Positions 7,168 to 43,700 are shown, numbered from the stretch's first letter. The stretch: DNA of 64,000 nt from Candidatus Omnitrophota bacterium (GCA_016177405.1 JACOVG010000027.1:14733-78732), one strand, 5' to 3'. Notes: generated by a model from the letters alone, not told the origin. A program made the numbers and translations.

Positions 7168-8678
7168 AGCTCGCCGACCTCGCCCGCGCCATTCGGACCT
7201 CCGCGGTCTGGAAATCGGTCTTCCGGCACGGCTATCAGGACACCCCGCGCAACCGGGCCCTGATGGTCCTCTCCAACGTCTTCCTGCACCTGCACCCCGT
7301 GAAGGTTCGGCCGGCCTCCTTGAGGTTCCGCTACACCTGGGGCCTGGGGGGGTTGTCCTTCTACCTGTTTTTGCTGCTGACGGTGAGCGGGGTCCTCCTC
7401 ATGTTTTACTACCGGCCGACCGTGGACCACGCCTACTGGGACATGAAGGATTTGAGATTTGTCGTTCCCTTTGGCTCCTTCTTGAGAAACATCCACCGGT
7501 GGTCGGCCCACGTGATGGTCCTTTTCGTCATGTTCCACATGATCTCGGTTTTTTACCGAAGCGCCTACAAGGCGCCCCGCGAGTACAACTGGGTGGTGGG
7601 GGTGATCCTGCTTTTGATCACTTTTCTGCTCTCCTTCACGGGGTACCTGCTGCCGTGGGATCAACTGGCCATCTGGGCGGTGACGGTGGGAACCAACATG
7701 GCGGCCAACACGCCCCTCCTGGGGGCCGAGGGGCCCTTCGCCATCGTGACCGCGGACAACGACGCCCGATTCATCCTGCTGGGCTCCAAGATCGTGGGAG
7801 AGGCGGGCCTGATCCGCTTCTACGTCCTGCACTGCGTTCTGCTTCCGCTTTTCTTCATCGGCTTTGTTTCGGTCCATTTCTGGCGGGTGAGAAAGGATGA
7901 GTTCTCGGCCGTGCCGCTGCCGCCCCGGGAGGAGAGGGACCGGGGGGTCAGGCCCGAGGAATGGCTCAAGGCCCACCCGGAGGCGCAGGCCCGGAAGGTC
8001 TTCACCTGGCCCAACCTCGTCTCGCGGGAGTTCGTGGCGGCGCTGGTGGTGACCGCGGGGCTCTCGATCTGGTCGGTCATCGCCCACGCGCCGCTGGAGG
8101 AGCTGGCCAACCCCAACAAGACGCCCAACCCCTCCAAGGCGCCCTGGTACTTTGTGGGGCTTCAGGAGCTGCTCGTCTATTTTGATCCCTGGATTGCCGG
8201 GGTGGTCCTGCCCACGATGATTCTGTTGGGGTTGGCCGCGCTCCCGTACCTCGACCCCAACCCCCGGGGGATCGGATACTACAACTTCCGGGACCGGAAG
8301 TTCGCTTCCGGGATCTTCACCTACGGCATCGCGTTGTGGTTCATCCTGATCGGGATCGGCTACTACCTGCGTGGTCCCGGGTGGGAGATCTACTGGCCCT
8401 GGGAGCCGTGGGACCATTTCCGGCCGGCCTCCTCGGTGGGGCTTTCCAACCTGCCGAACGGCCTTGGGATTCTCTTCCTGCTGGCCTACGGGGCTCTGGG
8501 GATGCTTCTTCCCAAGCTCTGGTTCAAGAATTTCTACAAGCAGCTTGGGCCCTTGCGGTATCTGCTCGTGATGTTCTTTGTGCTGGGGATGTTCTTTGTG
8601 CCGGTCAAGATGATTCTGCGCAACGTCTTCAGGATAAAGTACATTGTGAGCTTGCCCGATTTCAACCTCAACATATGA
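7164..8678 (+). CDS. Cytochrome b subunit (b6/b-type, N- and C-terminal domains fused)
   Basis: 504 aa, polytopic. Conserved His-bearing helices ([32 protein letters not shown]). Translationally coupled to the Rieske gene. Confidence 0.8.
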
Positions 8679-22319: not shown

Positions 22320-23193
22320 AGGCGCACACGAGAGACAAGGACAAGGCCCCTTCCGCGGATACCCCCACCCGGCCCATGAACAGGATCGTGGCCCCCTCCC
22401 GGATTCCCCAGCCGTTCAGGGAAACGGGAATCATCGCCACCGTCGAGATGATGGGAACGGTCAGCAGGAGGTAGACGGGCGGGATTCCGAGCTTCATGCC
22501 GGAAGAGACGGCCCAATAGGTTCCGGTCATCAGAAACTGAAGGCCCACCGACAGGCCAAACGCCGACAGCAGGATCTTCGGTTTGCGCCGGTACCGGACG
22601 ATCGATTCCTGAAACTGCGTGGTGTGGGCCGCCAGCGTGCCCAGGCCGATCTTCCCAAACGGCTTCAGGAAGGTTCGCAGCACCCGGCGGGAGCCCAGGA
22701 TGCCCACCGCGATTGCCATCGCCCCGCACAATCCCAGGAATCCCGCCCGAACGATCGGATCCTCCCGAGCGGCAGGGAAGGTGAACCAGGAGATTGACGC
22801 CAGCGTGACCAAACCCGCCATTCCGGCGAGGCGGTCCACCAGGATCGAAGCCAGGGAGTCCCGCCAGTTCCCCGTGACCTTGATCAGGTCGTAAGCCCGG
22901 AAGACGTCGCCGCCGATGGTGGTGGGCAGGAAGATGTTGAAGAAGTGGCTCACGAAGAAGGAATTGGCCAGGAAGGGCCAGCTCAAAAGGGGATGGGCGG
23001 GGACCAGGAGCTTCCAGCGGGTGACACACAGCAGCTCCGACACCCCGAACAGCAGCACCGCCGTGACGAGCCACCCCGGATGGATCGACCGGGACACCTC
23101 CCAAAGTCTCTGGACGTCCACCTCCCGGAAGATCCAGAGGAAGGCGCCGGCGGTGATCGCGGCCCGGACAACGAACGAGAGGATGGCGCGCAT
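22246..23193 (-). CDS. UPF0104 / lysylphosphatidylglycerol-synthase-TM-like (flippase-like) membrane protein
   Basis: 315 aa, about eight hydrophobic helices. Family-typical N-terminus MRAILSFVVRAAITAGAFLWIF and RRRRR C-terminus. It overlaps the 3' end of folC convergently. Confidence 0.55.
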   Translation of the reverse strand: MRAILSFVVRAAITAGAFLWIFREVDVQRLWEVSRSIHPGWLVTAVLLFGVSELLCVTRWKLLVPAHPLLSWPFLANSFFVSHFFNIFLPTTIGGDVFRAYDLIKVTGNWRDSLASILVDRLAGMAGLVTLASISWFTFPAAREDPIVRAGFLGLCGAMAIAVGILGSRRVLRTFLKPFGKIGLGTLAAHTTQFQESIVRYRRKPKILLSAFGLSVGLQFLMTGTYWAVSSGMKLGIPPVYLLLTVPIISTVAMIPVSLNGWGIREGATILFMGRVGVSAEGALSLSLVCAFIQVGYGALGGILFLTRKLRRRRR

Positions 23194-23978
23194 CAGGGGG
23201 TCTGGTTGATGTAGTCGTCGAACTGGATCTGTCCGGTGGCCTCCGAGCGGACCTCCCGGAGCCGCTGGCCGAAATAGGGATGGGTTCTGAAGTAGGAGAA
23301 TCTGCGCGGGGCCTGCCGGAAGGTGTGCTCTTTAAGCCGCGTCAGGAAGTCCACCCCCGCCAGGGGCGCGTATCCGGCCCGCTTGAGATAGCGCGTGCCC
23401 AGGCGGTCGGCCTCCAGCTCGTCGGCCTGGGAATAGGCCAGCAGCAGCGAAGCAAAGGCCAGGTCCATGCCGGCTTGGGTCCTGGCATCGGCCGACCCGG
23501 TGCTGGCGGTCAGCACCTGCAGAAGCTGCAGCCCCATGGCCCCCTGGATCCTCTTCACCACGTGTTTGGCGGCCACGTGCCCGATCTCATGGCCCAAGAC
23601 CGAGGCCAGCTCATCGTCGGATTTGGCCATCTCCATGAGCCCGGAGGTGACGTAGATGATCCCTCCCGGCAGGGCAAAGGCGTTGGGCTCCTTCTCCTCG
23701 ACGATGTGGAAGCGGTAGACCAAGTCCTTCCGGTCGCTCTGGGCCGCCACCCGGGCGGAGGTCTTATCCAACCGGGCCAAAAGCTCCGGATCGTGGACGA
23801 GCTTATACTCCTGCTCCACCCTCTTGGCCACCGCCTCCCCCATCTGGACCTCCCGCTCGGTGTTGAAGAAAAGGGTTTCGCTCTTGTCGGTGGCCACGTT
23901 GTAGCTCGTGGCGCAGCCCGAAAAAACAGCGGTAAGCAGTAGATGGTAAGCAGTAGGCAATAAGGAAAACCGTTTCAT
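23193..23978 (-). CDS. M48-family zinc metallopeptidase lipoprotein (BepA/YfgC-like)
   Basis: Lipoprotein signal MKRFSLLPTAYHLLLTAVFSGC and HEIGHVAAKH zinc motif. The start is set at the internal ATG that yields the signal peptide. Confidence 0.75.
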   Translation of the reverse strand: MKRFSLLPTAYHLLLTAVFSGCATSYNVATDKSETLFFNTEREVQMGEAVAKRVEQEYKLVHDPELLARLDKTSARVAAQSDRKDLVYRFHIVEEKEPNAFALPGGIIYVTSGLMEMAKSDDELASVLGHEIGHVAAKHVVKRIQGAMGLQLLQVLTASTGSADARTQAGMDLAFASLLLAYSQADELEADRLGTRYLKRAGYAPLAGVDFLTRLKEHTFRQAPRRFSYFRTHPYFGQRLREVRSEATGQIQFDDYINQTP

Positions 23979-24117
23979 CCCGTCTAGTTTCCCACAGATG
24001 CCAGGTGCCCGCAAGACCCCAGGTCGCGAAACACGTTAATAGGAATAGAAATCTCGTGTACACACTTGATTATTTCGAGGGCATCAGGTAGGCTTTTTGT
24101 ATGGGTCGAATTCCGCC

Positions 24118-27105
24118 ATGAGGCCAAACCCGCGATTCTTCTTAGCAAGATTTTTCGCCCCTTTGCTCTCGCTGGGGCTTGCCCTGCCCGATGTCTCTTT
24201 CGCACTTCGGCAGAACATCGAGGGTACCACCCAAGCTGGCTTAGAGGAGGCCCTTCGGCCCATTGTTGCCGCCGGCTTGGAGGAGGAGAGGAGACTGTCG
24301 GAGGCCTTGGAGGGGGCGGCTTTCCAAGGAGGGGCGCGTCTCATGAAGGACATCATCCGGTGGGCCGAAAAAGATCTGGCGGCAGCCGAAGCGGCAACCG
24401 CCGGTTTTTACGAGTTTTCTCAAGCGCGGCTCCCGGATTCGGTCGGCCAAGACAGTAATGGATCAGGCCATCTTATCGCCAGGTTTCTGCGGCTCGCCCA
24501 AAGAGCTCCCACCAGCCCTCCTCCAGCCTGGCCTCGGGCGGGGCCGAGTCAGGAAGAGTCCGCCGGGTCTGACGGAAGGCAAAAAAGCCGTCTCCTGAAG
24601 GCGCCCAAAAGCTATTTCCCCTGGGCCGGCCCCAAGGAGTTTCAGGCAGGCATGAAGGCCGCCCGGGAACGGTTGGCCACAGCGGGGACGGATGAGGAAG
24701 AGGAAAAGGATCCCCCCAGCAAAGAGGAGATCAAGCGGCTGGAAGGGCCCCTCCACCAAGGGCTTCACGCTGAAAACATCCTCCGAGACTATTCGCGCCT
24801 TGTTCAGGAGGCGGAGGATCTGCTGGTCCGGCTTCACCACAGGCTTATCCTCGCTTGCATGAAGGATAAAGGGATTACGCGCGACAGGGATCATCAAATC
24901 TTTGAGGATGTACGCCAAGGCGGCTACCTGGCCTTGCTAAACGCGATTCGGAACTACAATCCCAATCAAGGAACCGCCTTTTCCACCTATGCCTACCAGG
25001 CCATCCGCCGGGAGATCCACGACACCCTTCAGGCGATGTCCAGAAGACTTAGAATTCAGCCGGACGATCTGGAACTCTTTTTCAAGACCGCCCAAGAGCT
25101 GGAGAAGAAGCAGGGGATAGAGCCAGGGCCCGAGGAGATCGCGGAGGTCTTAGAGAAAGAATCCTCTTGGGCCGAGGCGATCTCCCATTGGAGGCAAAAC
25201 CCAGACTCCCTCAACCGGCCGGTAGGCGACGCCCAGCTTCTTGATCTCATCGAGCCCGAACCATTGGAGCCAGAATGGGAGGAAATCGAAGAGGAGAAGC
25301 GCGGCGTCCGTAAGGTTCTTGAGGCGGTGCGCCGCGAGAGCCCCGATGGCAGGCGAGACGCGCTGGTCCTCAAACTTTATTATGAGCTGGGAACCAGGAA
25401 TGGCCCTTACACACAGGAGTGGATCGCCAAGAGAACGGGGATCACCCCTCAACGGGTCAGCCAGATTATCCAGGATGGCATCCAGACGGCCCAAGAGCGT
25501 CTTGAGCTGACCCGTGAAGGGCGCGTGGAACCGATTCGTCCCGAGGCCCCCGGCCCCGCCGCGGGGGTTGCTTCCGGCGACGGCCGGGACAACGATGCCG
25601 ATGTCTATCTGATCGACGTGATGGGGATTCCGTACACGAGCCCCCTCTTTGAGCCGCTAAGCCGGCTTAAGAGGAGAGATCTCGAGAAGATCCAAGGGGC
25701 GCTGTCGGCCCATAGGCCCTTTCCCCTTAAGATCAAGCCAGGGGAATCTTTCCCGCGGCGCTTGACGCGGATCCGCCAATTTTACGGCCTGACCTCCAAG
25801 GCGGCAGCCCAAGGGGCAGGGGTGAGCGCGACAACCTACTCCGCCTGGGAGAACGGGCGCCAGTTGCCCAAGGGAGATTCTCTCAAGCGGCTGGCCCGCT
25901 TCTATGCTGAAGCCTACCGTCTCCATCCGGACGCGGTTCAGAGATACTTGGGGATGAGATCTCCTTGGTCGGTCTTAAGAAAGCTGAAGGGCAAGCCCTC
26001 GCGGCTGATCCTGAAGGGTCTGCGGGTTTCACAGTGGCACTCCGCCGAGGGATTCGCCAGGGCCGCGCTGCCCGGGATGAATCCAAAGAGCTACGTCTTA
26101 TGGGAGAAGGGAAGGAACGTCCCGCCGCTGGCCTTCTTGAGAAGGATCGTCTCCTTTTACGTGAGAGAGCGGGGTTTTCCCCAGCGCTCCCTGGAGAGGA
26201 CCCTTGGGATTCCAAGCCCCAAAGAGGTTCTTAAGGAGTTGAAGGGCAGGCCCCTGCCTGAAATACTGCGCGGCCTGCGCGAGTCGGTTCCCCTGACCAT
26301 CGCCGAACTGGCCTCTTTGGCAAAGATCGGCCCCAGAACCGTCACCCGGTGGGAAAAGGGCGAAGTGGTTCCCCTGCCGGCCAATCTTCGGAAGCCGGCG
26401 GAGGTTTATGCGCGGGGGGGTCATTTTCCAGAGAAAGAGCTCTTGGCCCTTTTGGATATCCCTTCGACAGAGCTGTTTCTTCAAGAGATCGCCTCTCGCC
26501 GGGGCGATGGGCCCAAGCTTCTTGATTCGCTGGAACACTACCTCGGCCTTTCCCAGTCTGGGATGGCCCGCCTGGTCGGTGTCGAGAAATCAACCTATCG
26601 GTTTTGGAAGCAAGGGAGGATAAAGCCGCCTCTTTCCCGGCGCTATCAAATGGTTGCGCGCCTCGCTGAAGAGGGCCGCCTTCCTGTCGAGCCCCTCCGA
26701 GAGGCCTTTGGCCTGGATGGGCCCGAGAAGACGTTGAGCCGTTTAAGAAGCATGCCGTTTCCGAAGGCCCTCCGGCACCTTCGCTGGGTGTACGGCATCG
26801 GAATGTCGAAGGTCGCCGGCCGCCTCGGTGTTTCTCGGTTTACCTACCGAGGACTGGAAAAGAGGGGGACCTTGCCGGCCCGATATCTTCCGACGCTGGC
26901 CGCTTATTACAGCGGTCTGGATGGCCTGCCTTCGCCCAAGCTCTTGGCTGCCCTTGAGGCCGGCCGTCAAAGGTGGCAGTCGGCTGATCGTGTCCGCAGG
27001 ATGGCGGCCGCCCCCGCCGCGCTCTCCGGCGCGGGGCTGGAGGAGGGTCTTTCGGAGCGGCTTCAGAGAGAACGCGGGACCGCCTGGCTCGGCGGGCAGG
27101 CATAG
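24118..27105 (+). CDS. GLEE-punctuated family protein: leader, sigma-70-like module (regions 2, 3, 4), five tandem HTH (XRE-like) repeats of about 85 aa each
   Basis: The start is set at the second ATG (MRPNPRFFLARFF...) because the first ATG lies inside the conserved promoter-like box. Leader ends ...VSFA-LRQ. GLEE at aa 48 and 60 (24097 numbering) and AGLEE 23 aa before the stop. FSTYAYQAIRREI (region 2-like) and LKLYYELG...TQEWIAKRTGITPQRVSQI (region 4-like). Five repeats carry the wEkG core of Cro/C1-type HTH. Confidence 0.6.
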   Translation: MRPNPRFFLARFFAPLLSLGLALPDVSFALRQNIEGTTQAGLEEALRPIVAAGLEEERRLSEALEGAAFQGGARLMKDIIRWAEKDLAAAEAATAGFYEFSQARLPDSVGQDSNGSGHLIARFLRLAQRAPTSPPPAWPRAGPSQEESAGSDGRQKSRLLKAPKSYFPWAGPKEFQAGMKAARERLATAGTDEEEEKDPPSKEEIKRLEGPLHQGLHAENILRDYSRLVQEAEDLLVRLHHRLILACMKDKGITRDRDHQIFEDVRQGGYLALLNAIRNYNPNQGTAFSTYAYQAIRREIHDTLQAMSRRLRIQPDDLELFFKTAQELEKKQGIEPGPEEIAEVLEKESSWAEAISHWRQNPDSLNRPVGDAQLLDLIEPEPLEPEWEEIEEEKRGVRKVLEAVRRESPDGRRDALVLKLYYELGTRNGPYTQEWIAKRTGITPQRVSQIIQDGIQTAQERLELTREGRVEPIRPEAPGPAAGVASGDGRDNDADVYLIDVMGIPYTSPLFEPLSRLKRRDLEKIQGALSAHRPFPLKIKPGESFPRRLTRIRQFYGLTSKAAAQGAGVSATTYSAWENGRQLPKGDSLKRLARFYAEAYRLHPDAVQRYLGMRSPWSVLRKLKGKPSRLILKGLRVSQWHSAEGFARAALPGMNPKSYVLWEKGRNVPPLAFLRRIVSFYVRERGFPQRSLERTLGIPSPKEVLKELKGRPLPEILRGLRESVPLTIAELASLAKIGPRTVTRWEKGEVVPLPANLRKPAEVYARGGHFPEKELLALLDIPSTELFLQEIASRRGDGPKLLDSLEHYLGLSQSGMARLVGVEKSTYRFWKQGRIKPPLSRRYQMVARLAEEGRLPVEPLREAFGLDGPEKTLSRLRSMPFPKALRHLRWVYGIGMSKVAGRLGVSRFTYRGLEKRGTLPARYLPTLAAYYSGLDGLPSPKLLAALEAGRQRWQSADRVRRMAAAPAALSGAGLEEGLSERLQRERGTAWLGGQA

Positions 27106-27171
27106 GGGCGGATTTTTTTGTCTTGGGAATTAATTTATATGCAAAATATTTATTGATTTATAACTATCGGT

Positions 27172-27752
27172 GTGTTAAGCTTCCTCCCCATGATGAAAAG
27201 AGAAAAACACAAGCCACTTCCAACAGCGCAAGTCGCGCAGAGGATCCTTTTCATCCGCGGGCAGAGGGTGATGCTGGACAGCGACCTAGCGGTCCTTTAT
27301 GGAGTTGAGACCAAAGTCCTTAATCGAGCGGTGAGGCGGAATGAAGCCCGCTTTCCTGCAGATTTTATGCTCCAACTCACCCAAGAGGAATACAGATTTT
27401 TGAGGTACCAATTTGGCACCTCAAACTTGAGGTCACAAATTGTGACCGCAAGTTCCAGGCACGGCGGGAGACGCTATCTGCCCTTGCTTTCACCGAGCAA
27501 GGCGTCGCTATGCTCTCAAGCGTTTTGAATAGTGAGCGAGCAATTCAAGTGAACATCTCCATCCTACGGGCTTTCGTGAGGCTGCGAAGGCTCTTGGCCG
27601 CCCACAGGGGGCTTGCCAGAAAGCTGGAGGAGATGGAGAGAAAATACGACGCCCAATTCAAGGCGGTGTTTGACGCGATCCGACAGCTTATGGCGCCGCC
27701 GAAAGAATCCCGCCGGAAGATTGGGTTTCATACCCAAGGGTGCAGGGCTTGA
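27172..27752 (+). pseudogene. ORF6N-domain (KilA-N-related) gene disrupted by a 1-nt deletion and a roughly 33-nt palindromic insertion; paralog of 29615..30148
   Basis: Two overlapping ORFs (27172..27528 and 27510..27752) together align colinearly with the intact paralog ([18 protein letters not shown], RFPxDFMxQL, ...[20 protein letters not shown]). Relative to the paralog, one base is lost after GGRRYLP. An extra segment made of two back-to-back perfect hairpins is present at 27418..27447. Confidence 0.6.
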
Positions 27753-27781
27753 ACCCGGCTCCCCTTACAAAGGAGAAGACG

Positions 27782-28078
27782 ATGACGAAAACGGTTGAGT
27801 TGTCGGTGGTGAGGCTAAACAAGTTCGAAGGGGAAGGGACCGCCAGGGCCTTTTGCGATGTGGCGGTTGCGCAGTCGTTTCTCATCAAGGGAGTGAAGGT
27901 GATCGAGGGAAAGAAGGGGTTATTCGTCAGCATGCCGCGCGAGCAGGGCAAGGACGGCCAGTGGTACGACACCGTGATTCCCTTGTCCAAGGAAGCTCGC
28001 CAGGAGATCTCCGAGGTGGTCTTGGAGGCCTACCGGTCGGGCGCCCAGGCGCCGGCGCAGGCCCCGGCAGGGGAATAG
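27782..28078 (+). CDS. spoVG: SpoVG family protein
   Basis: Translation MTKTVELSVVRLNKFEGEGTARAFCDVAVAQSFLIKGVKVIEGKKGLFVSMP... matches the SpoVG fold signature. The start is taken at the internal ATG. Confidence 0.7.
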   Translation: MTKTVELSVVRLNKFEGEGTARAFCDVAVAQSFLIKGVKVIEGKKGLFVSMPREQGKDGQWYDTVIPLSKEARQEISEVVLEAYRSGAQAPAQAPAGE

Positions 28079-28267
28079 AGGAAAAGAGGATACAGGATGG
28101 GGCGGCCGCTCCCCGCGGCTGCCCTCCCCTTCCCATGAAAGAAGCCGTTCTCACGGAGCAGATAGATCCCCGGATCTTGTTGATCCGCTTGGCGCTCAAA
28201 ACTTGAGATCGCATTGGCTACAGTCTGAGGAGATGGGGTCTAGGGGATGATATAATTTCAGCGACGG

Positions 28268-29521
28268 ATGCGACTCTCCCAATGCCCTGGCAAAGTCTTC
28301 AGCGTGAGGGTTGTTGCCACTTTTCTGGCCCTGAGCCCCATTCTGTCTGCGCCCGCCCTTGCCCTGCGTGACCCAGAAGCGCGAGAGAAGAAGCCGGAGG
28401 TTCTGGGTGGTCTGGAGGAGGTTCTTCGCGGCGATCCCACTACTTCTGCAACGGCTCCTTCCGCGGCTGTCTCCCTAAGCTCCGCCGCCGGGCTGGAGGA
28501 GGGGTATCGGGTGGTACCTGTGACGGAAGAGTACGCCCTGCGGCACGCGGAGGAGTTGGCGGCCATCGATGCGGGGGATCCCGTGTGGAAGAAGGAAGGG
28601 CGTTGGGGTCCGGAGCGTTTCGCCACGGACGTGCGGCCTACCACGGGGACGCGGCTACAGGGTCTTTGGAAGTTCAGCTTCGTTGCGGAGGATGTTTCGG
28701 GGATTCCCGTGGCCTATATCTACGCAGCCGATGGCCAGCCGGACATCCCCGTGACCGCAAGGTACCGCGGGGCGTTTATCGCCCGGGTGAGTGTACGGCC
28801 GAACCAACAGGGACGCAGATTGGGCCCGCGTCTTCTGTTGGCCGTCGCCCGCGCGGCGAAGGAAGCTGACGTAGGTCCCTACGTGACGCTGGAAACGGAC
28901 AAGGAGAACACCCGCGCCCGCCATGTGTACGAGTCACTGGGTTTTCGGAGCGTCGGGGAACGGCTTGAAGAAAAGAAGGGAGTTACTTTCATCGAGTACG
29001 CTGTTCTTGTAGAAAACCTCATCCAGCGCGCGGAGGAGAAGCTCGCCGCCGGCCTGGAGGAGTGGGTGCCGAGGTGGCTGAAGGGACTGGCGACGCCTGA
29101 GGAGTTGGAGCATTGGATTCATCATGGGCACGAAGCCCTGGCGGGGTCTCCGTCGGTGGCGGTGCTGTTTGATCCGGGCTTGGTGCCTGGGAGGGACGAC
29201 GGGGATCGGGAGCTGTTGCTGCTCGAACTGGAGGGACAGATGCGGTCGGTGTTTGCCTTGCCGGAAGAGGTACGGTTCCGGATTGGACTGCGGGGGGCGA
29301 AGGCGGATTGGGAAAGAGAATTCCGGATTATCGAGGTGGTGCGGCATCCGGAAGGCAGGCCGGAGGCCCCTCCCCTTCCGATGGGTGCGTTGCCGTTGGT
29401 GGTTGCGGAGGCGCTGGCCTCTCCCCACCCGCGGTTCTATACCGACCCGCTGATTTACGCCGATTTGACGGAGCTTACCCTGCCGCAGGCCCTGACGGAC
29501 CTGACGGATCTGTTCGCCTGA
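28268..29521 (+). CDS. GLEE-punctuated family protein: leader, GNAT acetyltransferase domain, unknown C-terminal domain
   Basis: Leader ...PALA-LRDPE. GLEE at aa 48, 75 and 262. Canonical GNAT motif A (ARVSVRPNQQGRRLGPRLLLAV) and motif B (YESLGF). TATAAT lies 12 nt before the ATG and there is no SD. Confidence 0.65.
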   Translation: MRLSQCPGKVFSVRVVATFLALSPILSAPALALRDPEAREKKPEVLGGLEEVLRGDPTTSATAPSAAVSLSSAAGLEEGYRVVPVTEEYALRHAEELAAIDAGDPVWKKEGRWGPERFATDVRPTTGTRLQGLWKFSFVAEDVSGIPVAYIYAADGQPDIPVTARYRGAFIARVSVRPNQQGRRLGPRLLLAVARAAKEADVGPYVTLETDKENTRARHVYESLGFRSVGERLEEKKGVTFIEYAVLVENLIQRAEEKLAAGLEEWVPRWLKGLATPEELEHWIHHGHEALAGSPSVAVLFDPGLVPGRDDGDRELLLLELEGQMRSVFALPEEVRFRIGLRGAKADWEREFRIIEVVRHPEGRPEAPPLPMGALPLVVAEALASPHPRFYTDPLIYADLTELTLPQALTDLTDLFA

Positions 29522-29614
29522 GCTGGGCCGCGTTTTTATCCCCCTCGCTATTTGCTTTATTGATAAAATATTTGTTGACATTGCGCTTAGCGTGAAGTAG
29601 CCTATTTTGCCCCG

Positions 29615-30148
29615 ATGCGGAAGAACCCTCTTGCTCTCGCCAGGTCAGTTCATGCGGAAATCATCGAGCGCCGGATCCTGCTGATCCGTAAGCAGCGGGT
29701 CATGCTGGATTCGGATCTGGCCCAGCTTTATGGAGTAACCACGTTTAACCTCAACAAGGCCGTCAAGCGCAACAGGGAACGCTTTCCAGAGGATTTTATG
29801 TTCCAGTTGTCCGTGGGAGAGGCCGGAAACTTGAGATTCCAATTTGGAATGTCAGGTTGGGGAGGCAGACGCTATCTTCCATACGCCTTCACTGAGCAGG
29901 GAGTGGCTATGCTCTCCGGCGTTCTGCGTAGCAAGCGAGCCATCCAAGTGAACATCGCCATCGTGCGGGCATTCGTGCGGTTGCGGCGAATGCTGGCGTC
30001 ACACCGTCACCTGGCGCAGAAGCTGGTGGAATTGGAGCGCAAGCTCGCGAATCATGATCAGAAGATACATTCGATCTTCGACGCGATCCGGCAGCTGATG
30101 GCGCCACCCGCTCCGGCTCGACGCAGGATCGGTTTTCATTCCACGTAA
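29615..30148 (+). CDS. ORF6N-domain (KilA-N-related) protein
   Basis: 177 aa. [42 protein letters not shown] is the ORF6N signature. A TTGACA-17-TAGCCT promoter-like element sits upstream. Confidence 0.7.
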
Positions 30149-30160
30149 AGGAGGCAAACG

Positions 30161-31687
30161 ATGTTGGCAAGGGTGGAGACGGCGGCGGTGGTGGGCATCT
30201 CGGCGGCGCCGGTCACCGTGGAGGTGGACGTGGCCGACGGGCTGCCGGCGGTCACCATCGTGGGGCTTCCGGATCCGTCGGTCAAGGAGTCCAAGGAGCG
30301 GATCAAGTCGGCCCTGAAGAACACCCAGTTCGCCTGGCCCCAGACGCGGATCACGGTGAACCTGGCGCCGGCCGATGTCCGCAAGGAAGGCTCGGCCTTC
30401 GATTTTCCCATCGCCCTGGGGCTTCTGGCCGCCTCCAAACAGCTGGATCCCCAGCTCTTTGCCGACGCGGTGGCGCTGGGAGAGCTGGCGCTGGACGGCG
30501 CCTTGAGGCCTATCCCCGGCGCCTTACCGGTGGCCTTGAGTTTAAAGGGAACGGGCAAGCGGCTTCTGCTGCCGGCGGCCAATGCCCGGGAGGCGGCCGT
30601 GGCGGAGGCGGTTCGCGTCTATCCGATCGAGCACCTTCAGCAGGCGATCGCCTTCTTGAGGGGCGAGGCGCCTCTGGCGCCCTGCCGGATGGATCAGGGC
30701 CAACGGGCCAAACCGGCCGCGCCGGAGGCGCTGGATTTCTCGGAGGTGAAGGGTCAGGTTGTCGCCAAGCGGGCGATGGAGGTGGCGGTGGCCGGCTGGC
30801 ACAACCTGCTTTTGGTGGGGCCCCCGGGGGCGGGCAAGACAATGCTGGCCAAGCGGATCCCCACCATCATGCCGCCCTTGTCGCTGACCGAGTCGCTCGC
30901 GGTCACCCAGATTTACAGCGTCATGGGCATGATACCGCACGGCCAGGCCCTTCTGGACGAGAGGCCCTTCCGGGCGCCTCACCACACCATCTCGGATGTG
31001 GCCTTGATCGGCGGCGGCTCCCTTCCCAGGCCCGGAGAGATCTCTCTGGCCCACCTGGGCGTTCTCTTCTTGGATGAACTGCCGGAGTTCAACCGTCCGG
31101 CCCTGGAGGCCCTTCGTCAGCCCCTGGAGGAAGGGATTGTCACGGTCAGCCGTCTGCATGGAAGGATGGTCTTCCCGGCCCAATTCATGCTGGCGGCTTC
31201 CATGAACCCCTGCCCGTGCGGGTCGGCCGGGGACCCGGCCAGGAACTGTCTTTGCAGCCCGATACAGATTCAGCGATACCGTTCCAAGGTCTCCTGGCCC
31301 CTCCTGGACCGGATCGACATCGTTCTGGAGGTGCCGGCCCTTTCGTACGCCGAGCTTAGCTTTGAGGGCCAGGGAGAATCCTCCGGGGCGATCCGGGCCC
31401 GCGTGGCGGAGGCCCGCCGGCGCCAGGAAGAACGGTTTAGAGGGGAAGGGTTCTTCTTCAACGCCCAGATGCGCCACCGGCATCTGAAACGATTCTGCCG
31501 CCTCGATGAGACGGGCCGGAAGCTTTTTAAAGATGCCGTCTTGAACCTGGGGCTTTCCGCCCGGGCCTACCACCGGATCTTAAAGGTCTCCCGCACCATC
31601 GCCGACCTGGCCGGCTCCGACGAAATTCGTCCGGAGCACCTGGCCGAGGCGGTTCAATACCGCGCCCTGGACCGATCTGCGCCTTAG
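30161..31687 (+). CDS. YifB/ComM family Mg-chelatase-like AAA+ ATPase
   Basis: 508 aa. Lon-like N-domain, Walker A GPPGAGKT, Cys-rich zinc insert (CPCGSAGDPARNCLCS) and C-terminal domain. Confidence 0.8.
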   Translation: MLARVETAAVVGISAAPVTVEVDVADGLPAVTIVGLPDPSVKESKERIKSALKNTQFAWPQTRITVNLAPADVRKEGSAFDFPIALGLLAASKQLDPQLFADAVALGELALDGALRPIPGALPVALSLKGTGKRLLLPAANAREAAVAEAVRVYPIEHLQQAIAFLRGEAPLAPCRMDQGQRAKPAAPEALDFSEVKGQVVAKRAMEVAVAGWHNLLLVGPPGAGKTMLAKRIPTIMPPLSLTESLAVTQIYSVMGMIPHGQALLDERPFRAPHHTISDVALIGGGSLPRPGEISLAHLGVLFLDELPEFNRPALEALRQPLEEGIVTVSRLHGRMVFPAQFMLAASMNPCPCGSAGDPARNCLCSPIQIQRYRSKVSWPLLDRIDIVLEVPALSYAELSFEGQGESSGAIRARVAEARRRQEERFRGEGFFFNAQMRHRHLKRFCRLDETGRKLFKDAVLNLGLSARAYHRILKVSRTIADLAGSDEIRPEHLAEAVQYRALDRSAP

Positions 31688-34936: not shown

Positions 34937-34953
34937 TCGCTGCCCTTTGTTTG

Positions 34954-35037
34954 TGCCGAGGGAGAGAATCGAACTCTCATGGGGTTTCCCCCACAGGTTT
35001 TTGAGACCTGCGCGTCTGCCGGTTTCGCCACCTCGGC
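34954..35037 (-). tRNA. tRNA-Leu (anticodon CAA), type II with long variable arm
   Basis: Reverse complement folds as GCCGAGG acceptor / D-arm / CAGGU-CUCAAAA-ACCUG anticodon arm / long variable arm UGGGGGAAACCCCAU / GAGAG-UUCGAUU-CUCUC T-arm. No encoded CCA. Confidence 0.8.
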
Positions 35038-35044
35038 GAAAAAG

Positions 35045-35120
35045 TGGTGGAGCTGAGGGGGATCGAACCCCTGACCTCCTGCATGCCATGCAGGCGCTCT
35101 CCCAGCTGAGCTACAGCCCC
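35045..35120 (-). tRNA. tRNA-Ala (anticodon GGC), CCA encoded
   Basis: Reverse complement GGGGCUGUAGCUCAGCUGGGAGAGCGCCUGCAUGGCAUGCAGGAGGUCAGGGGUUCGAUCCCCCUCAGCUCCACCA. The G3:U70 alanine identity pair is present. Anticodon loop AU-GGC-AU. Confidence 0.85.
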
Positions 35121-37724: not shown

Positions 37725-40700
37725 ATGAAAACAACCCCGATGCGGCGTTTCTTTTTTCTCCGCTTTGTGAGCGCTTTTCTTATTCTCACGCTGGCCGTTC
37801 CCTGCCCAGCCCACGCCCTGCGCGCCGAGGGTCCCACCTCCAGCAAGGTTGCGGCCGGCTTGGAAGAGGCCCTCGGATCTAAAGCCGCCGACCCGCCGAA
37901 GAAGTCCAAGATTGATGTACGGACGAAAGAACTGTCGGTAAAAGACACCGTGCTGACGGTTCAACCCCTTTCACCGGACGATCTCCTGAATTACCGAGAG
38001 GATCTTTGGGAGCTCCTTAAACTCATCCCTACGGACATTCCGCACGATGAAACAATCATAGATGAGATGCGGCAAGGGAAGTGGTACGACCGGGATTTAA
38101 GTTTCGCGGTCTGGGATAAAATGTCGAATCGCCCCATCGCTCTGGCCACCCTGATGATCTCTACAGATCCCCGCTACAAGCTTGGGACGGCGGTCATCCT
38201 TGAGAACTTCGCTGTCCATCCGGATTTTCAGGGGACCCCCGCAACCAGCTGGCTGCTCCACCGTGCCTTTTCCAACGCGCACGCGCTCCTTTCTCGACTT
38301 CATAAGGGGGGACCTCTCTATGCGCACCTGCTCACCATGAAGGGGGGTCGTCCGGATAAGCTGGGTTCAGAACGGGCGGAGCGTTTTTACACCAAGATGG
38401 GAGGGGCGGTCAAGACAAGAATCCCGGTAGGTTGGGAGGTTAAGGCCGGAGAATTCGAGGGTCATGTCTTCAAGAATCCTCATCTGGAGTTTGAGTTTGC
38501 CCTTCCTGGATGCCTCGCGACGATCGAGCAGGAGTTTCAAAAAAAGCTGTCCTCCGGCCTGGAGGAGACGCAGGCGGTGGAGGTTCTTCAATGGAGCATG
38601 GAGGATCTTAGAGAGGTCCTAAGGAAGCGCGGTCTCCTTCGGCTGGGTCAAACCGATGACCAAGCGGCCGAGCTGGCCTTGAAGATGACGCTTGAGGAAA
38701 GATTCAAAACCCGGCCAACGAAACCGATTCTCCTTCGGGTTCTTCCTTCTAACCAGACGCAGGCGAGATCTCTGGAGGAGATCGGGCTTCAGCCTTTGGT
38801 GAGCCGAGAGGATATCGTAAGCCGCCTGGAACTTAGCGCTTATGAGGACCACGCCATTTCCCGCATCCGCCTGGAACAAGAAGGAGAACACCAGCATCTC
38901 TCGGTGCCTCTTTCCAAGCCGCTTAAAATTCCTGGGACAGGGCAATCTCTTGTGGAGGTCCGGATATCGTCCGGAGACCGGCGTTTTGATCAGCTTCCAG
39001 AGGTGTCGCGGCTTGTCCAGGAGCTTCGTGAAAGGAAGGCCAGCGCCTCCGATAAGCGAGATTTCCTCCAAGAGCTGCCCGGGCGGCTGCGAAACGGGAA
39101 GCTTCGCCTCTCTCACCTGCCGGCGTTTCCGCTTGGGTTGAGGGAGGAAGCGGACGTAGAAACGTTTGCCCGACGGGTTCAGCTTGACCCCTCCCACTCA
39201 AACCTTCTGGTATCGGAGGGGAAAGCCCAGGAAGCGCGCGAGCGCGAGGAACGATCCGCCAAGGCGAAGCCTCGAGAATCTCTTCCGGCGGAACCTCCAA
39301 AGAAGGATAAGCCCCCCGCGGCTGATCAGGAATCGGTGGCCCAGGCGCGCGAACTGGCCCGGAAGATTGCGCCGGAGGCCGCCCACGCCCTGGAGAGGCT
39401 TCTTAAAACCTTGGCTCTGGCGGCCTCTTGGGCTGGGATGCCGCCCAATTCAAAGGAGGTTGAAGCGCTGGGGGAAGAGATGCGCCGAGCCCTTGAGCCA
39501 GAACAGGTTGTGAGGAACCACGTTCGGAAAGGCCGCGCGCCTAACGAGGAGGAAGCGAAACGACAGCTTGCCCTGCTGGAAAAGCAGCTGCGGGAACGGA
39601 TGAGGCGATTGTACAAAACGAAATCAAGGGATGAGGTGGTAGCTTCCTTTCTCTCGCAGATTCAGCGGATGGCGACGGAAAAGAATTGGGCCAGCTATTG
39701 GTGGCTGGATCCGGACGTCGAAGTGCCTGTGCCCGAGGCGGTGACGGAGCTCTACCTGGTGGATCCTCCCGAGCTGGATGAGGCCGCCACCGCGGTCCTC
39801 TTGGAAGCGACCCGCTTGCTTCAGGAGGCCTTGGTACACCATCCGCCGGAAGATCCGAAGAGCTTGCTGTTTCTTCGAAAACTTCAGCTTAGCGGGGTGA
39901 GCTACTTGGCGTCAAAGAAAAAGCTTCCCACGGAACTGGCCGACGCCTTCGTTCGCGACCCAGGGACCTACCAGGGGGAGCTTTGGCTGGTGCGCCAGAA
40001 CTTTTGGTACCAGAAAATGCGCACGCAGAAGATTAGCGAAAACCACACGGGTCCACCGGGCTTGGTGCAGAGAGCTCCTCGTAAGGGGAGGGTGGAGAAT
40101 TCCAGCCATGAAATTGATTTTGGAACCCCCGGGCAGCTTTCAAGATCCTCTTTGAAGAAGATGCTTCTGACCAAGATGAAGCTGGTCCAGCAGCCCGTCG
40201 TCAGCGCTCCCCGAACGAATGGGGAGCCCGCAGGGCCGACGTATGACGACCATACCCGAGCCTTCATCCTTCTGGAGGTGGCCAGTCAGCCGGGGCACTT
40301 TTCGAAACCTGGAAAGTTGGAGGACGAGAGAAAATCATTCCTGCGGGTTATGTGGATTAGGGTAAGCGAGTTACAGCGCGCGCTCAAGCAGCCTGAACCG
40401 ACGTTTAAAGATGCCTACCAAAGAGGAAGACCTTTTCTTGAAGCCATTCAGATACCGGAAGAGGTCAGGCGGGATGTCCTCTTGGAGGATCCCGCGGCCG
40501 TTATCAACCTCTCTGCGATTATGTTGGAGGTGATGGCCCGGATCGCCCAGAAGCTGTCAAGCGATTTTCCGTTGGAAGAGGGTCTCGAAGGTAGTCGGGT
40601 CTTGCGCAGAGAGCTGACGTGGCGCTACCCCGCCTATCGGCCCTGGTGGCCCGGTCTGGCAGCCGCCGGCAAAGGTCAACCCTCCGCCGGCCCCTCGGCA

Positions 40701-43700
40701 GAGCTCGGGGCCGGGCTGCCCCAAAAAGGGGCTCCAGTTTATGGGCCACATGAAGGTGGCCCGAAAACTTCGGGGTTGGAGGAGACGGAGGGGAAACCCA
40801 AATCGACGGAGGAGTGGTTTCAAGCGGGGCTTGAATTTCTCCAGGAGAAGGATTTTCCATCGGCCGCTATCGCCTTCAGGGCGGTCACGGATCTGGATCC
40901 TGGCCTGGGAGAGGCGTGGTCGAATTTGGCCATTGCTCTTCTTGAGCAAGGCCTGTTGGAAGAAGCCCTTGCGGCCTCCCAGAAGGCCGTTATTCACCTG
41001 CCAAATTGCGCTGCGTGTTGGCTTATTCTCGGAAACATCCACCGCAACGCGGGCCGCCTCTCCAAGGCCATCAATGCTTATGGGACCGCTCTCGAGCTTG
41101 ATCCCAAGTTGTCCCAAGCCCATTCCCAGCTGGGTTTAACCTATCATCGAATGGCAGTTCTTATTTTGGGACGCCAACCCCCTCCTGATAGTGCCGAAAG
41201 CGAGACCGCTAAAGAATGGCTTCATCTGGCGAAAGAGGCCTACAAAGCGGCCATCGGCTTGAATCCGGATGACCCGCTGACCTTGAACAACCTTGGAAAT
41301 GTTTTCTTAAGCCTGGGCGATCCGGCTTCGGCAGAGGAAAACCTCCGGGGCGCCGTCATGGCCGATCCGGAATATCTGAACCCGTGGATCAACCTGGGCC
41401 ATCTCTACAGAGAAACCGGCCGCTTTTCCGACGCGGCAAAGGCCCTCTGTGAGGTGCTCAAGCTTAAGCCGGAGGACTTTGACGCCTGGGATTTGTTCCT
41501 CAAGATGAGACTGGATTCGCGGGGGCAGGGGCTGGAACGGATTGGCCGCCTTCACCTGATCTGGCACTCCATCTTGAGGTTCTCAAGAGCAGCAAAATCA
41601 CCGGAAGAAATGCCTGAACTTGCCAGGCGGCTGGAGGATGTGAAAAACCACGGGTTCCTCCCAAGCGATGTTCCCTTCATTCTCGGCATACCTGGCGGCT
41701 CTCCCGAGAGGATGTGGAGTTTGTTCTTTGAAAAGAAGGCAATCCGGAAACGGTTCCTGGCGCTGGGCGGGATACTCATTGCCATGGACGGCGCCTGGAG
41801 GACCAACGCGGATGCAGGCCGCTCACTCTCCCCCGATGAGAGAATCAGACAGCTCACAGAAGATACCACCCGAGGCTTGGGAGAGCTCCACACTGAAACA
41901 GGGCTCCCCTTCCTGGATCTCGATGGAGATCCGGAGCTGATGGATGTGATCGCCAGAACGCTCCAGTTCCTATTGTCTCCTCCACCCGAGGCCGGGCTGG
42001 AGGAGAAGATTGAACGATTTGGGGAATTGGTAAGGCAAGCCGGCAAGATCCTCGATGGACAGACGAAGCAAGGCCTCCTGAAGCCCAAGATCCAGCAGAT
42101 TCAAGAAGAAAGGTTCTTCATCGAGGGAGGAATCGCTTACCTTCCGCACCGGCAAGGAAAGGCCGTGGTGATCGGAGACCTCCATGGCGATCTCGAAGCC
42201 CTCCAAAGGACTCTGAAGATGGTAAGAAAGGAAACCGGCTACGACCCCAAGACCAACAAAAACTCCGCCGCTCCGGTCTACCTCGTTTTTGTGGGGGATT
42301 ACCAGGATGCGGGCTCCCAAAGCCTGGAGGTCCTCCTGACCGTTCTGGATCTCTACGCGGAAGACCCGAATCACGTCATCCTTTTGGGGGGTAACCACGA
42401 ACGGGGCCGGGCGCAGTACTGGAGCCCGGACGTGCGGGCGGAGGGCCCTGACTCCCATTGGTTTTTCAAAGACATCAATAAGATCGTGGGCAGAAAAAAA
42501 GGAGGAACGCTTTACGACAGGTGGCATCGGTTGTGCTTAAAGATGCCGGTTTTGGCGGTTGCGTCCCAGGGGCTGGTGGTTGCCCACGCGGGTTCCTCCA
42601 ATACGGTTTTGGAGGGGCCGGGCATCGCTGAAAAATATGGCGAGAAGCTCGATCCCAGGAAGGGACTCTTAGGCATTGCCCAAAGCAGGGATCTCCAGGA
42701 CCAGATCAGCTGGAATCCCATGCCCAGCCCAAAAACAGAAGAAGCGCTTCAACAGGCCCAGCAGGCACCCGATCGGCGCAACGATGCATTCAGGCGGCTT
42801 AATCCCAGGCGGCAAAAGAGAGGTTTTTGGACGGGGCGAGAGGGATTCGATGTCTTCATGGAGGCCATCGGCGGCAAGGTTATGGCGCGGGGGCATGACC
42901 GCCTGGCCCCGTGGTGGGTGACCCTTTTTAACGGCAGGGTGATCACCCTGATTGGGACCCACCACCAGAGCCCCCATTACGGATACCGCAAGGATCAGAT
43001 CACCGCCCGCTTTGCCGTCTTCGACCTTGCCAAGAGCTACGACCGTGTCGATCCCGGGGAAGTGCTCCGATTCCCTTGGGGCAAACCTTCCGCCAAATCC
43101 GGCCTGGAGGAGACGCAGGAGCTGATTGACCGATTGGCCAATTCAGAAGAGCCGATCACCGAGGCAGACGTCCGGGAGCTTAATGGCCATTACCAAGAAC
43201 CTTCCTCTCCAACCTACCGGGAGGCCATGACCTTGCCTCCAAACGCTGAACATGAAGCGGCCGGTGGTTTCCGGCCGGAGGCGCCCATTGCCGAGCAGAT
43301 GAGCGACTTTCTGAAGTGGCTGAATACCGCAGCCGGCAGCCGTCAAGACCCCCGCGTCTATCCGTCGCTGGGGCAGAGCATTCCCGATCGAAAGCCCTGG
43401 AATCTGGATTGGAATGACCCGGCTACCCATGCGGCGATGGCGCACTGGCTTTTCCATCAGGTGATCCATCCCTATGACGATGGAAACGGGCACACCGGCT
43501 GGGCCTTATTGAACATCCTCCGGCGAAGAGCCGGACTGCCGCCGGTTCGGTTCTTAGCGGAGAGAGAAGCCGGCTATCTCAAAACCTTCCGTTTGAATCG
43601 GGATCCCTTTCCGTATCTCCAGTTTATGGAGGAACCGACGGGGATGCAGGCAGAGGGAGGCCTGGAGGAGGGGATGCGGAAGTGGCGCCCGGAGCTGACC

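Follow-up and report, generated by a model that had tools for sequence, protein, structure and literature searches.

ORF6N genes and palindromic units

The DNA analysed (Candidatus Omnitrophota bacterium, GCA_016177405.1, JACOVG010000027.1:14733-78732; 64,000 nucleotides (nt) in full, hereafter the window) carries between positions 27106 and 30148 two same-strand genes of the ORF6N family, ORF6N-1 and ORF6N-2 (copies 1 and 2), which flank spoVG and a gene for a 417-amino-acid GNAT protein; this layout, described in an earlier note on the same DNA, was confirmed with Pfam. Both genes contain, within the reading frame, a 25-nt palindrome, in two units or in one, and comparison with related genes indicates that compensatory changes maintain it across phyla, at the expense of codon usage and amino-acid identity. 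Comparison loci and contigs are designated by L-numbers (L001, L008 and so on); coordinates without an L-number refer to the window. The central features are:

27134..27189, plus strand: AT-rich block upstream of ORF6N-1, from alignment with the ORF6N upstream regions of L008, L010, L011 and L012.
27190..27752, plus strand: ORF6N-1, pseudogene (Pfam PF10543).
27400..27424, no strand assigned: unit A, TTGAGGTACCAATTTGGCACCTCAA, 11/12 pairs, encoding LRYQFGTS.
27427..27451, no strand assigned: unit B, TTGAGGTCACAAATTGTGACCGCAA, 11/12 pairs, encoding LRSQIVTA.
27478..27491, plus strand: frameshift site of ORF6N-1, CTGCCCTT^GCTTTC, base gap between 27485 and 27486.
27782..28078, plus strand: spoVG (PF04026), syntenic in relatives; G+C content at third codon positions (GC3) 83%.
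28268..29521, plus strand: gene for the 417-amino-acid GLEE-motif protein with a GNAT acetyltransferase domain (Pfam).
29556..29614, plus strand: AT-rich block upstream of ORF6N-2, from alignment with other ORF6N upstream regions.
29615..30148, plus strand: ORF6N-2 (Pfam PF10543), intact, 177 amino acids, short one-unit form.
29831..29855, no strand assigned: ORF6N-2 unit, TTGAGATTCCAATTTGGAATGTCAG, 10/12 pairs, encoding LRFQFGMS.

Both genes were matched by PF10543 (5' part of copy 1, E = 1e-25, 90 bits; copy 2, E = 5e-33, 113.6 bits; gathering score 27.8 bits, exceeded by both) and by PHROG 4792 ('anti-repressor'). Copies 1 and 2 were 65% identical in nucleotides (324/501, in agreement with the value of about 65% given before), 68% in amino acids (113/167) and 46% at third codon positions. 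When one base was added to copy 1 (see below), a protein of 187 amino acids was obtained that aligned end to end with its homologues; it was 74–75% identical to the homologue P0001, 62–71% to 22 other aligned homologues (among them sequences from metagenome-assembled genomes (MAGs) that carry the labels of four further bacterial phyla and of an archaeon) and 63% to copy 2 in the same alignment. The term 'duplicated', used for the pair in the earlier note, is not borne out: copy 1 is closer to P0001 than to copy 2, third positions agree at only 46%, and the two copies are, on these identities, old paralogues, not recent duplicates. With the repaired copy 1 as query, at least 7,999 proteins were obtained at E ≤ 1e-10, the top matches being 64–74% identical; those named by source were MAGs labelled Proteobacteria, Thermodesulfovibrionales, Acidobacteria, Planctomycetota, Nitrospirota and Methanobacteriaceae, and among the more than 8,000 close homologues scored, those with a label represent no fewer than nine bacterial phyla, together with archaeal MAGs and viral contigs.

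At the hairpin position copy 1 exceeds copy 2 by 33 nt, and the extra nucleotides and the hairpins described at 27418..27447 are present; the 'two abutting hairpins' correspond to the junction of units A and B together with the core of unit B. Copy 1 thus has two tandem 27-nt units and copy 2 has one, each a 12+1+12 palindrome in frame. The 33-nt segment is likewise in frame, encodes the family-conserved unit NLRSQIVTS and was found in 20 of the 24 close homologues aligned and in both positional orthologues (L008 and L010, intact, two units). A gain of 33 nt by copy 1 was therefore not upheld, since the longer form is the majority state of the family and copy 2 is the minority short form; a test for insertion of a miniature inverted-repeat transposable element (MITE) failed on the same grounds, the second unit being present in frame in the intact L008 and L010 orthologues with the conserved peptide encoded. 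The alignments establish copy 1 as the common two-unit form and copy 2 as a one-unit form, and the 'hairpins' as no insertion. The native palindrome assigned earlier to copy 2 exists; the string quoted for it was slightly off, the actual one being ATTCCAA-T-TTGGAAT inside the 25-mer at 29831..29855.

The L008 orthologue of unit B is TTGAGATCACAAATTGTGATCTCAA; relative to the window, the pair G6-C20 is replaced by A6-T20, so that AGG...ACC (Arg...Thr) becomes AGA...ATC (Arg...Ile), a compensatory change. Predicted hairpins of the units ranged from −14 to −33 kcal/mol (z = −4.8 to −7.9); in copy 1 the antisense strand folds better than the sense strand. An AlphaFold model for ORF6N-2 (mean predicted local distance difference test score 74.9) consisted of the ORF6N domain followed by a long C-terminal helix; the unit peptide was placed at the end of helix 67–77 and in the following loop of lower confidence, a place that tolerates one, two or more units.

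Frameshift in ORF6N-1: after the codons for GGRRYLP, copy 1 reads CTG CCC TT^GCT TTC and the L008 orthologue CTG CCT TTC GTG; the third base of the Phe codon is gone, and the loss of one base with a shift of frame, as noted before, is confirmed and reproduces across assemblies. The frame is open over 27190..27485, and from 27486 to the stop at 27752 the sequence is again in the native frame. Separate assemblies of different runs gave seven contigs 100% identical to the window; three of them, from other runs (L001, L002 and L004), span the frameshift and are 100% identical to the window there. Since the same sequence was obtained in three separately assembled runs, a one-off assembly error does not explain the frameshift; all the runs look like one project and probably represent one population. 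The ORF6N core, from GGRRYLP(Y/F) onwards, is uninterrupted in copy 2 and broken in copy 1, and because the missing base lies inside this conserved core, copy 1 is a pseudogene of the family, and a recent one; the rest of its frame is still open. The 88 codons that remain open past the shift up to the native stop could be quoted for a sequencing or assembly artefact, or for a programmed ribosomal frameshift that still gives a full-length protein. Against the former stands the identical sequence in the contigs of three other runs; against the latter, G CCC TTG C is not a slippery heptamer of the type X XXY YYZ, and the orthologues of L008 and L010 are in frame at the site. Either explanation is considered very improbable.

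Upstream of ORF6N-1 the AT-rich block contains AAAATATTTATTGA at 27143, a TTGATT box, a 17-nt spacer and a −10-like TAAGCT; upstream of ORF6N-2 it contains AAAATATTTGTTGA at 29565, TTGACA, a 17-nt spacer and TAGCCT. The pattern common to five loci is TTGAyw, a 17-nt spacer and TAnnnT. The motif AAAATATTTRTTGA was found exactly twice in the 64 kb (27143 and 29565); a shared AT-rich motif had been reported before and exists, at these positions and not at 27147 and 29566. The region, formerly named a promoter, is a conserved upstream block and not a demonstrated promoter, a consensus scan calling none; the only strong 'terminator' call in the scan of 23900..30300 was palindromic unit A itself, on the minus strand. 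The ORF6N genes begin 8–12 nt past a TAnnnT box, and an extended −10-like sequence at 28248..28270 (TGATATAAT) precedes the GNAT gene's ATG by 11 nt, and this gene is without a Shine-Dalgarno sequence; these distances suggest that mRNAs may be leaderless or near-leaderless in this organism, to which the consensus promoter scan gives no support. The bases before the ORF6N-1 start (27179..27189, CTTCCTCCCC ATG) are C-rich and look like the complement of a Shine-Dalgarno sequence, not like a Shine-Dalgarno sequence; CTCCCC is kept in L008 (about 1795..1805) and in L010.

Conservation, distribution and possible function of the palindrome

Pairing and codon choice: the consensus of the 25-nt palindrome, TTGAGGTCACAAnTTGTGACCTCAA, encodes each unit of the type L-R/K-x-Q-x-x-T/I-S. 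From metagenomes, 80 further ORF6N loci (55–67% amino-acid identity) were collected, in which the units were located by peptide and not by symmetry. In 67 units a mean of 10.8 of the 12 pairs was complementary, vs 4.5 ± 1.6 when the same peptides were re-encoded with the codon usage of their own genes; 10 or more pairs were reached by 0.16% of the re-encodings and by 90% of the real units. Codon choice in the 56 distinct 25-mers was correspondingly narrow: Leu was TTG in 54 (15% elsewhere in the same genes), Arg was AGR in every case (39; 19% elsewhere) and Ser was TCA in 51 (8% elsewhere).

Covariation: among 62 distinct units 91.8% of the cells were paired, and changes on both sides were counted in 80 cells, vs 27.6 ± 3.5 in shuffles (0 of 500 reached the observed number). 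The covariation score was 0.291, vs 0.116 in shuffles and 0.05–0.10 in controls with slid partner columns. The covarying pairs are 5-21, 6-20, 8-18 and 9-17, and in each of them a synonymous third position follows an amino-acid-changing partner, for which reason co-evolution at the protein level is no explanation. In 23 units TCA is thus matched by Val-type xTx, and in 7 units TCG is matched by Ala-type xCx, no unit being discordant (p = 5e-7); AGG or AAG goes with ACN, and AGA or AAA with ATN (p = 7e-9). The innermost pair, 12-14, is the least conserved. Taken together, these counts establish that the palindrome is selected as a nucleic acid, both for its sequence (outer arms TTGA/TCAA, centre CAAnTTG) and for the complementarity of its inner arms.

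Template switching at quasi-palindromes produces 'compensatory' double changes without selection. An ancestral quasi-palindrome with no function, kept symmetric by such hairpin-templated copying of one arm onto the other, would account for the double changes and would fit the frequent duplication and loss of units; it would not account for the conservation of the outer arms and centre across phyla against local codon usage, for amino-acid replacements accepted to keep pairing, or for the recurrence of the same 25-mer in non-coding leaders and alone in viruses. We regard it as improbable.

Distribution: for the count over genes a unit was defined as an in-frame 25-nt palindrome with at least 10/12 pairs and the centre CAAnTTG, some 57–66 nt upstream of the FTEQG core. 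At least one unit with 10 or more pairs was present in 82 of the 92 ORF6N cores in the loci fetched, and two units in 23; 100 of the 104 internal units are in frame 0. Distant ORF6N genes with the unit were found in Sulfuricurvum, Legionella, Bacteroides ovatus (two units), Butyrivibrio, Treponema and a human-gut viral contig. The outer arms of the Butyrivibrio unit change together to TCGA...TCGA; the Treponema unit has 12/12 pairs, CAA being replaced by AAA (Gln to Lys) with its partner altered to match. The subfamily (about 180 amino acids, ORF6N domain and C-terminal helix) was met in 5 of 50,697 phage records and 25 of 72,556 plasmids and is mostly chromosomal.

Leader and viral copies: in 13 to about 20 genes an extra copy lies in non-coding DNA between the upstream block and the Shine-Dalgarno sequence or start codon; the second site is then some 240–290 bp downstream of the promoter-near copy, inside coding DNA. 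An exact-pattern scan of viral contigs gave 26 sites, 13 of them inside ORF6N genes. The other 13 comprise one upstream of an ORF6N gene (L120), one about 900 nt from such a gene (L112) and 11 for which the fetched DNA shows no ORF6N motif (three of these close to a contig end). L126, the fourteenth locus looked at, has three sites, two upstream and one internal. In L105, L107, L109, L117, L121, L124, L125 and L127 the exact palindrome stands in viral DNA that seems to be non-coding, and the several kb fetched contain no ORF6N gene; such lone copies could be bound by an ORF6N protein that the host or another part of the virus encodes.

Proposed action: we propose that ORF6N-domain proteins recognise the palindrome as a site acting in cis, a tentative proposal to which we give somewhat less than an even chance. 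The ORF6N domain is chosen as the reader because the element travels with these genes, the domain is of the KilA-N-like DNA-binding kind, a long helix follows it and the leader copies occupy operator-like positions. The site would probably act at the level of DNA, as duplex or extruded hairpin. The mismatches comprise 47 A.C vs 27 G.T, so that G.U is not preferred (the slight opposite excess is not robust), and the centre base is A in 26 units and T in 28, with no strand preference; together with the stand-alone viral copies these counts favour action on DNA over action on mRNA. Outer arms and centre would provide sequence recognition, and the freely covarying inner positions indicate that the pairing of the two arms counts as such; for the most part the encoded peptide, at the end of a helix and in a loop, would be carried along with the DNA element. 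The long C-terminal helix of the model would allow dimerisation, and a site inside the protein's own gene may serve self-recognition or autoregulation. From the symmetry, the leader positions, the multiple L126 sites and the long model helix, all of them indirect, an autoregulatory operator of a dimeric protein is suggested as a candidate function. The fuller proposal, that ORF6N genes are self-contained cassettes of an upstream block and a reading frame whose product recognises the palindrome in its own gene, the element, in duplex or extruded-hairpin form, dictating the peptide and mediating autoregulation and possibly the exchange and spread of these genes among housekeeping operons of bacterial phyla and archaea, is considered possible and rather doubtful.

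Several points weigh against recognition by the ORF6N protein. The role of that protein as reader is itself an inference; covariation of this symmetric kind is met more often in a folded strand than in a duplex operator, and the predicted hairpins are very stable. The AlphaFold model gave no match in the PDB at E ≤ 0.001, the best weak matches being winged-helix-like domains of Ski/Dachshund. No sigma-70-type promoter was called in 23900..30300 (at least 9/12 to TTGACA/TATAAT, 16–18 nt spacer; the host belongs to a non-model phylum), and the two ORF6N genes of the window have no leader copy. Gene-specific recognition, sought as the same variant in upstream and internal copies, gave p = 0.08 over all positions and 0.16 over the variable positions and was dropped. 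Finally, the shuffle and Fisher p-values given above overstate independence, the sequences being related by descent; the effect sizes, however, are very large.

Two-unit genes carry two different inner-arm classes, which speaks for pairing at positions 8 and 9 and against a base-by-base reading of them; for this reason a hairpin or cruciform in DNA and a hairpin in RNA are serious rivals. An RNA hairpin in ORF6N mRNA, in the coding part and the 5' leader, acting on stability, processing (for example by RNase III) or translation, would be in line with the strong predicted folds (z down to −7.9), with covariation of the helix type in which the pair 12-14 is least conserved, as expected for a loop, and with the position of the leader copies downstream of a promoter-like block, where they are probably transcribed. 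It is at variance with the base counts just given (G.U not favoured over A.C, centre base without strand preference), with the better folding of the antisense strand of copy 1 and with the lone viral copies, which have no fixed relation to a gene; nor was an Rfam family matched, the Rfam 15 covariance-model scan of 26900..30400 giving only one chance-level match (16.5 bits vs 60). An RNA hairpin is thought unlikely; the hairpin in DNA is weighed below with the evidence for recombination, the site read by the ORF6N protein being retained as the preferred explanation.

Gene order and rearrangement between M48 and yifB

The genes and segments next to, or overlapping, those listed above are:

23193..24014, minus strand: M48 peptidase gene, the gene upstream of the 1002-amino-acid GLEE-motif gene.
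24019..27129, plus strand: insertion relative to L008, with the sigma/helix-turn-helix (HTH) gene (blastn).
24097..27105, plus strand: gene for the 1002-amino-acid GLEE-motif protein with sigma-70 regions 2, 3 and 4 and several XRE-type HTH domains (Pfam).
28135..28206, plus strand: relic of the 5' end of the old ORF6N-2, ATG, 22 codons (MKEAVLTEQIDPRILLIRLALKT) and stop, 72 nt (alignment with L008 and L010).
30161..31687, plus strand: yifB/comM-like Mg-chelatase AAA+ gene, starting 13 nt past ORF6N-2.

The corresponding loci of relatives (identity to the window, gene order) are:

L008: YifB 93%, M48 91%; M48, ORF6N, spoVG, ORF6N, yifB.
L010: YifB 73%; M48, ORF6N, spoVG, ORF6N, yifB.
L011: YifB 72%; M48, ORF6N, yifB, ORF6N, spoVG.
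L012: YifB 74%; M48, yifB fragment, gene for an 843-amino-acid GLEE protein, ORF6N, yifB, spoVG.
L013: YifB 69%; M48 and yifB, no ORF6N.

The order M48 (minus strand), ORF6N-1, spoVG, ORF6N-2, yifB is established by this synteny as a conserved arrangement of Candidatus Omnitrophota; the adjacency of ORF6N and yifB is kept in the window, L008, L010, L011 and L012. Since the same order is found at the same place in related Omnitrophota, the ORF6N/spoVG core is ancestral and not part of an island.

Inserted segments: in the blastn comparison with L008, window 24018 joins L008 1731 and window 27130 joins L008 1745. The 1002-amino-acid protein had no homologue in L008 or in L010–L013. A second window-specific segment, some 1.7 kb long (about 28190 to about 29905–29965), is missing from L008 and L010 (synteny, blastn); it comprises the GNAT gene, an upstream block that is new, and roughly the first 290 nt of ORF6N-2. 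The relic at 28135..28206 was matched to copy 2 weakly by tblastn (E = 0.45) and was accepted after nucleotide alignment to L008 and L010; 28189..28213 resembles the junction of units A and B. Because the relic aligns with the ORF6N-2 starts of L008 and L010, the GNAT segment must have gone into the resident ORF6N-2 and partly replaced it. By these alignments two GLEE-motif genes are established as inserted, one in the spacer between M48 and ORF6N-1 and one inside the old ORF6N-2.

Mosaic genes: against L008, ORF6N-1 was 95–97% identical over its first 120 nt, 55–72% over 27310..27716 and 85–90% from 27717; ORF6N-2 was 47–65% identical over 29615..29905 and 97–98% over 29966..30085, as a chimera. 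With L010 as third sequence or outgroup, the central parts of ORF6N-1 were about equally divergent in all pairs, which singles out no one lineage as that in which the centre had been replaced. Internal segments of the ORF6N genes have, on these identities, been exchanged repeatedly while the surrounding genes evolved vertically. None of the breakpoints (about 27310, about 27717, 29906..29965) falls on a palindrome.

These data bear on a single-strand DNA hairpin or cruciform used in DNA transactions (recombination, nicking, priming) that move or exchange ORF6N cassettes. Internal identities of 55–72% where the flanks have 95–98% would be expected of it, as would the relic and the chimeric ORF6N-2, which record recombination within ORF6N sequence, the varying number of units (1 to 2 or more), the strict Watson-Crick pairing, a Y1 transposase gene beside yifB in L008, and the scatter of ORF6N genes, which have no constant partner gene, among housekeeping genes and type I restriction-modification operons. 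ORF6N genes lie between dnaN and gyrB (L054, L056) and between nuoM and nuoN (L097), these neighbours having been identified by eye from the sequences; L103 has the series methyltransferase, winged HTH protein, ORF6N, HsdS, Fic, and ORF6N genes are often found in type I restriction-modification operons. At these four loci they sit singly in operons with gaps of a few bases and no linked recombinase. The breakpoints, lying off the palindromes, speak against such a role; a 12+1+12 site has no obvious crossover spacer, and at the 80 metagenome loci no partner gene was conserved (79 of 104 neighbours were singletons) and no recombinase or HUH nuclease was consistently linked. It is considered quite unlikely, and a site read by the ORF6N protein is again preferred.

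Composition and edges of the interval: the ORF6N genes have 53–56% G+C vs 63% for the whole window. GC3 is 83% in spoVG, 58–67% in the ORF6N genes, 70–72% in the two GLEE genes of the interval and 77–89% in flanking genes; all four GLEE-motif genes of the window lie at 66–72%. No recombinase or integrase domain was found by Pfam among the eight proteins of the interval, a search of its edges for att sites or target-site duplications gave only ORF6N homology and GLEE-codon repeats, and no tRNA gene is adjacent (nearest at 34953..35120).

The earlier note had proposed that 24000..30150 is one acquired island. Two parts of this are retained, namely that the closest relatives lack both GLEE-motif genes and that the ORF6N genes are low in G+C; a single island is not, as ORF6N-1, spoVG and ORF6N-2 stand at the same site in L008 and L010, the composition is not uniform, and the edge search yielded no island-specific repeats or att sites. 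In its complete form, with a small MITE-like hairpin element and a frameshift disrupting copy 1 and with duplicated ORF6N genes bracketing the island, the proposal can draw on the 33-nt excess of copy 1, on the low ORF6N G+C and on the GLEE genes missing from L008 and L010. It is opposed by the in-frame 33 nt, which occurs in intact orthologues and most homologues, by the ORF6N-spoVG-ORF6N-yifB order of relatives, by the native composition of spoVG, by the ancient divergence of the two copies and by the want of an integrase, att-like repeats or an adjacent tRNA gene, and is regarded as hardly credible. The M48–yifB interval is, by comparison of these loci, better seen as a rearrangement hot spot. 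Of the original description, the frameshift, the low-G+C ORF6N genes and the two lineage-specific GLEE genes have stood, and a hairpin inserted into copy 1, a recent duplication and a single island have been given up.

Further observations on the neighbourhood: four large open reading frames of the window (24097..27105, 28268..29521, 37725..46004 and 54178..58161) begin alike, with an N-terminus that resembles a signal peptide and ends in ALR; repeated (A/T)GLEE motifs come next, and the middle modules differ (sigma and HTH, GNAT, or repeats). The 1002-amino-acid protein combines a hydrophobic N-terminus with a complete sigma-70 core and a run of HTH_3/XRE domains, an architecture unusual for a sigma factor. 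The 417-amino-acid GNAT protein and the 843-amino-acid protein of L012 (6826..9357) have a common C-terminal domain of about 160 amino acids ending in ...TDLFA, and both genes lie directly upstream of an ORF6N-yifB pair. In L012 a 27-codon 5' fragment of yifB (6592..6672, 81% identical) stands beside M48, upstream of the GLEE gene, the full yifB following 3.3 kb on; this fragment and the ORF6N-2 relic, both duplicated 5' ends of the target, hint at a common route of insertion, which might be single-crossover integration through homology. The Y1 transposase gene of L008 (IS200/IS605-type, PF01797; 4861..5541) lies between yifB and a DUF212 gene and is not found in the window. A GC-rich inverted repeat stands just past spoVG in three genomes (window 28097..28127, degenerate; L008 2720..2746; L010 about 7407..7435), where other genes have leader copies of the ORF6N palindrome; in L008 it reads GAGGTGGCCGC-CTCTG-GCGGCCACCTC, its ends GAGGT...ACCTC are shared with the ORF6N palindrome, and no T-run follows.

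Overall assessment and comparison with known systems

The order of the locus, the two GLEE insertions, the pseudogene, the 25-nt palindrome in the ORF6N genes throughout, its selection as a nucleic acid and its leader and viral copies are, taken jointly, considered highly probable. When the cis site recognised by ORF6N proteins is added to these six points, the explanation as a whole is held, as a compromise, to be somewhat probable. For the locus the result is a corrective: a conserved Omnitrophota cluster with one recently inactivated ORF6N copy and two inserted GLEE-motif genes in an M48–yifB hot spot. For the family it means that a large, widely transferred and uncharacterised DNA-binding family carries a nucleic-acid element inside its reading frame, strong enough to fix codon choice and force amino-acid replacements, so that selection at the DNA level overrides that at the protein level; the palindrome gives a testable handle on what ORF6N proteins bind and do. 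In annotation, tandem hairpins and differences in unit number in ORF6N genes should not be taken for insertions or assembly problems.

The genes of the window are ordinary members of PF10543, a family with thousands of homologues at 55–75% identity, whose descriptions do not include a palindrome in the coding sequence; the present subfamily of about 180 amino acids is distinguished by being mostly chromosomal. Iyer, Koonin and Aravind reportedly placed ORF6N in 2002 with KilA-N, Bro-N and Rha among the predicted DNA-binding domains of phage proteins of the 'anti-repressor' type. No description of an ORF6N coding-sequence palindrome was found in the searchable literature; as far as can be told, the family-wide palindrome is undescribed, and the locus itself is ordinary.

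Roi of phage HK022: according to the reported work of Clerget and Boccard (J Bacteriol, 1996), this Bro-N/KilA-C-type DNA-binding protein binds a site that lies in the gene encoding it. The broad class of phage regulators and a recognition site within the protein's own coding sequence are common to both systems, binding by the ORF6N protein being only inferred; Roi belongs to another domain family and has a single, experimentally mapped site beside an IHF site, and we know of no family-wide palindrome with covariation reported for it.

Lambda O and ori-lambda: the origin consists of inverted-repeat iterons inside the O gene, where they encode a linker. The likeness is that tandem symmetric sites lie in the protein's own gene, in a structurally tolerant segment, with a repeat number that varies among relatives; the lambda iterons are a replication origin, whereas the ORF6N genes stand singly in chromosomes with no sign of a replicon.

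Intragenic operators and C-boxes: galOI in galE and lacO2 in lacZ are auxiliary operators within genes, and the controller proteins of restriction-modification systems have palindromic C-boxes. The logic of a palindromic operator with promoter-near and intragenic sites is the same, and ORF6N genes are often found in type I restriction-modification operons; the known operators, unlike the ORF6N element, are not kept symmetric by compensatory change across phyla and do not dictate amino acids of the regulator.

Hairpin DNA elements: repetitive extragenic palindromes (REP) with their RAYT proteins, the ends of IS200/IS605 and integron attC sites are read as folded single strands. They are extragenic and need an HUH or tyrosine recombinase, whereas the ORF6N element is intragenic and in frame, strongly conserved in sequence and without a linked recombinase; common to both are short imperfect palindromes, the conservation of pairing rather than sequence, and an association with gene mobility.

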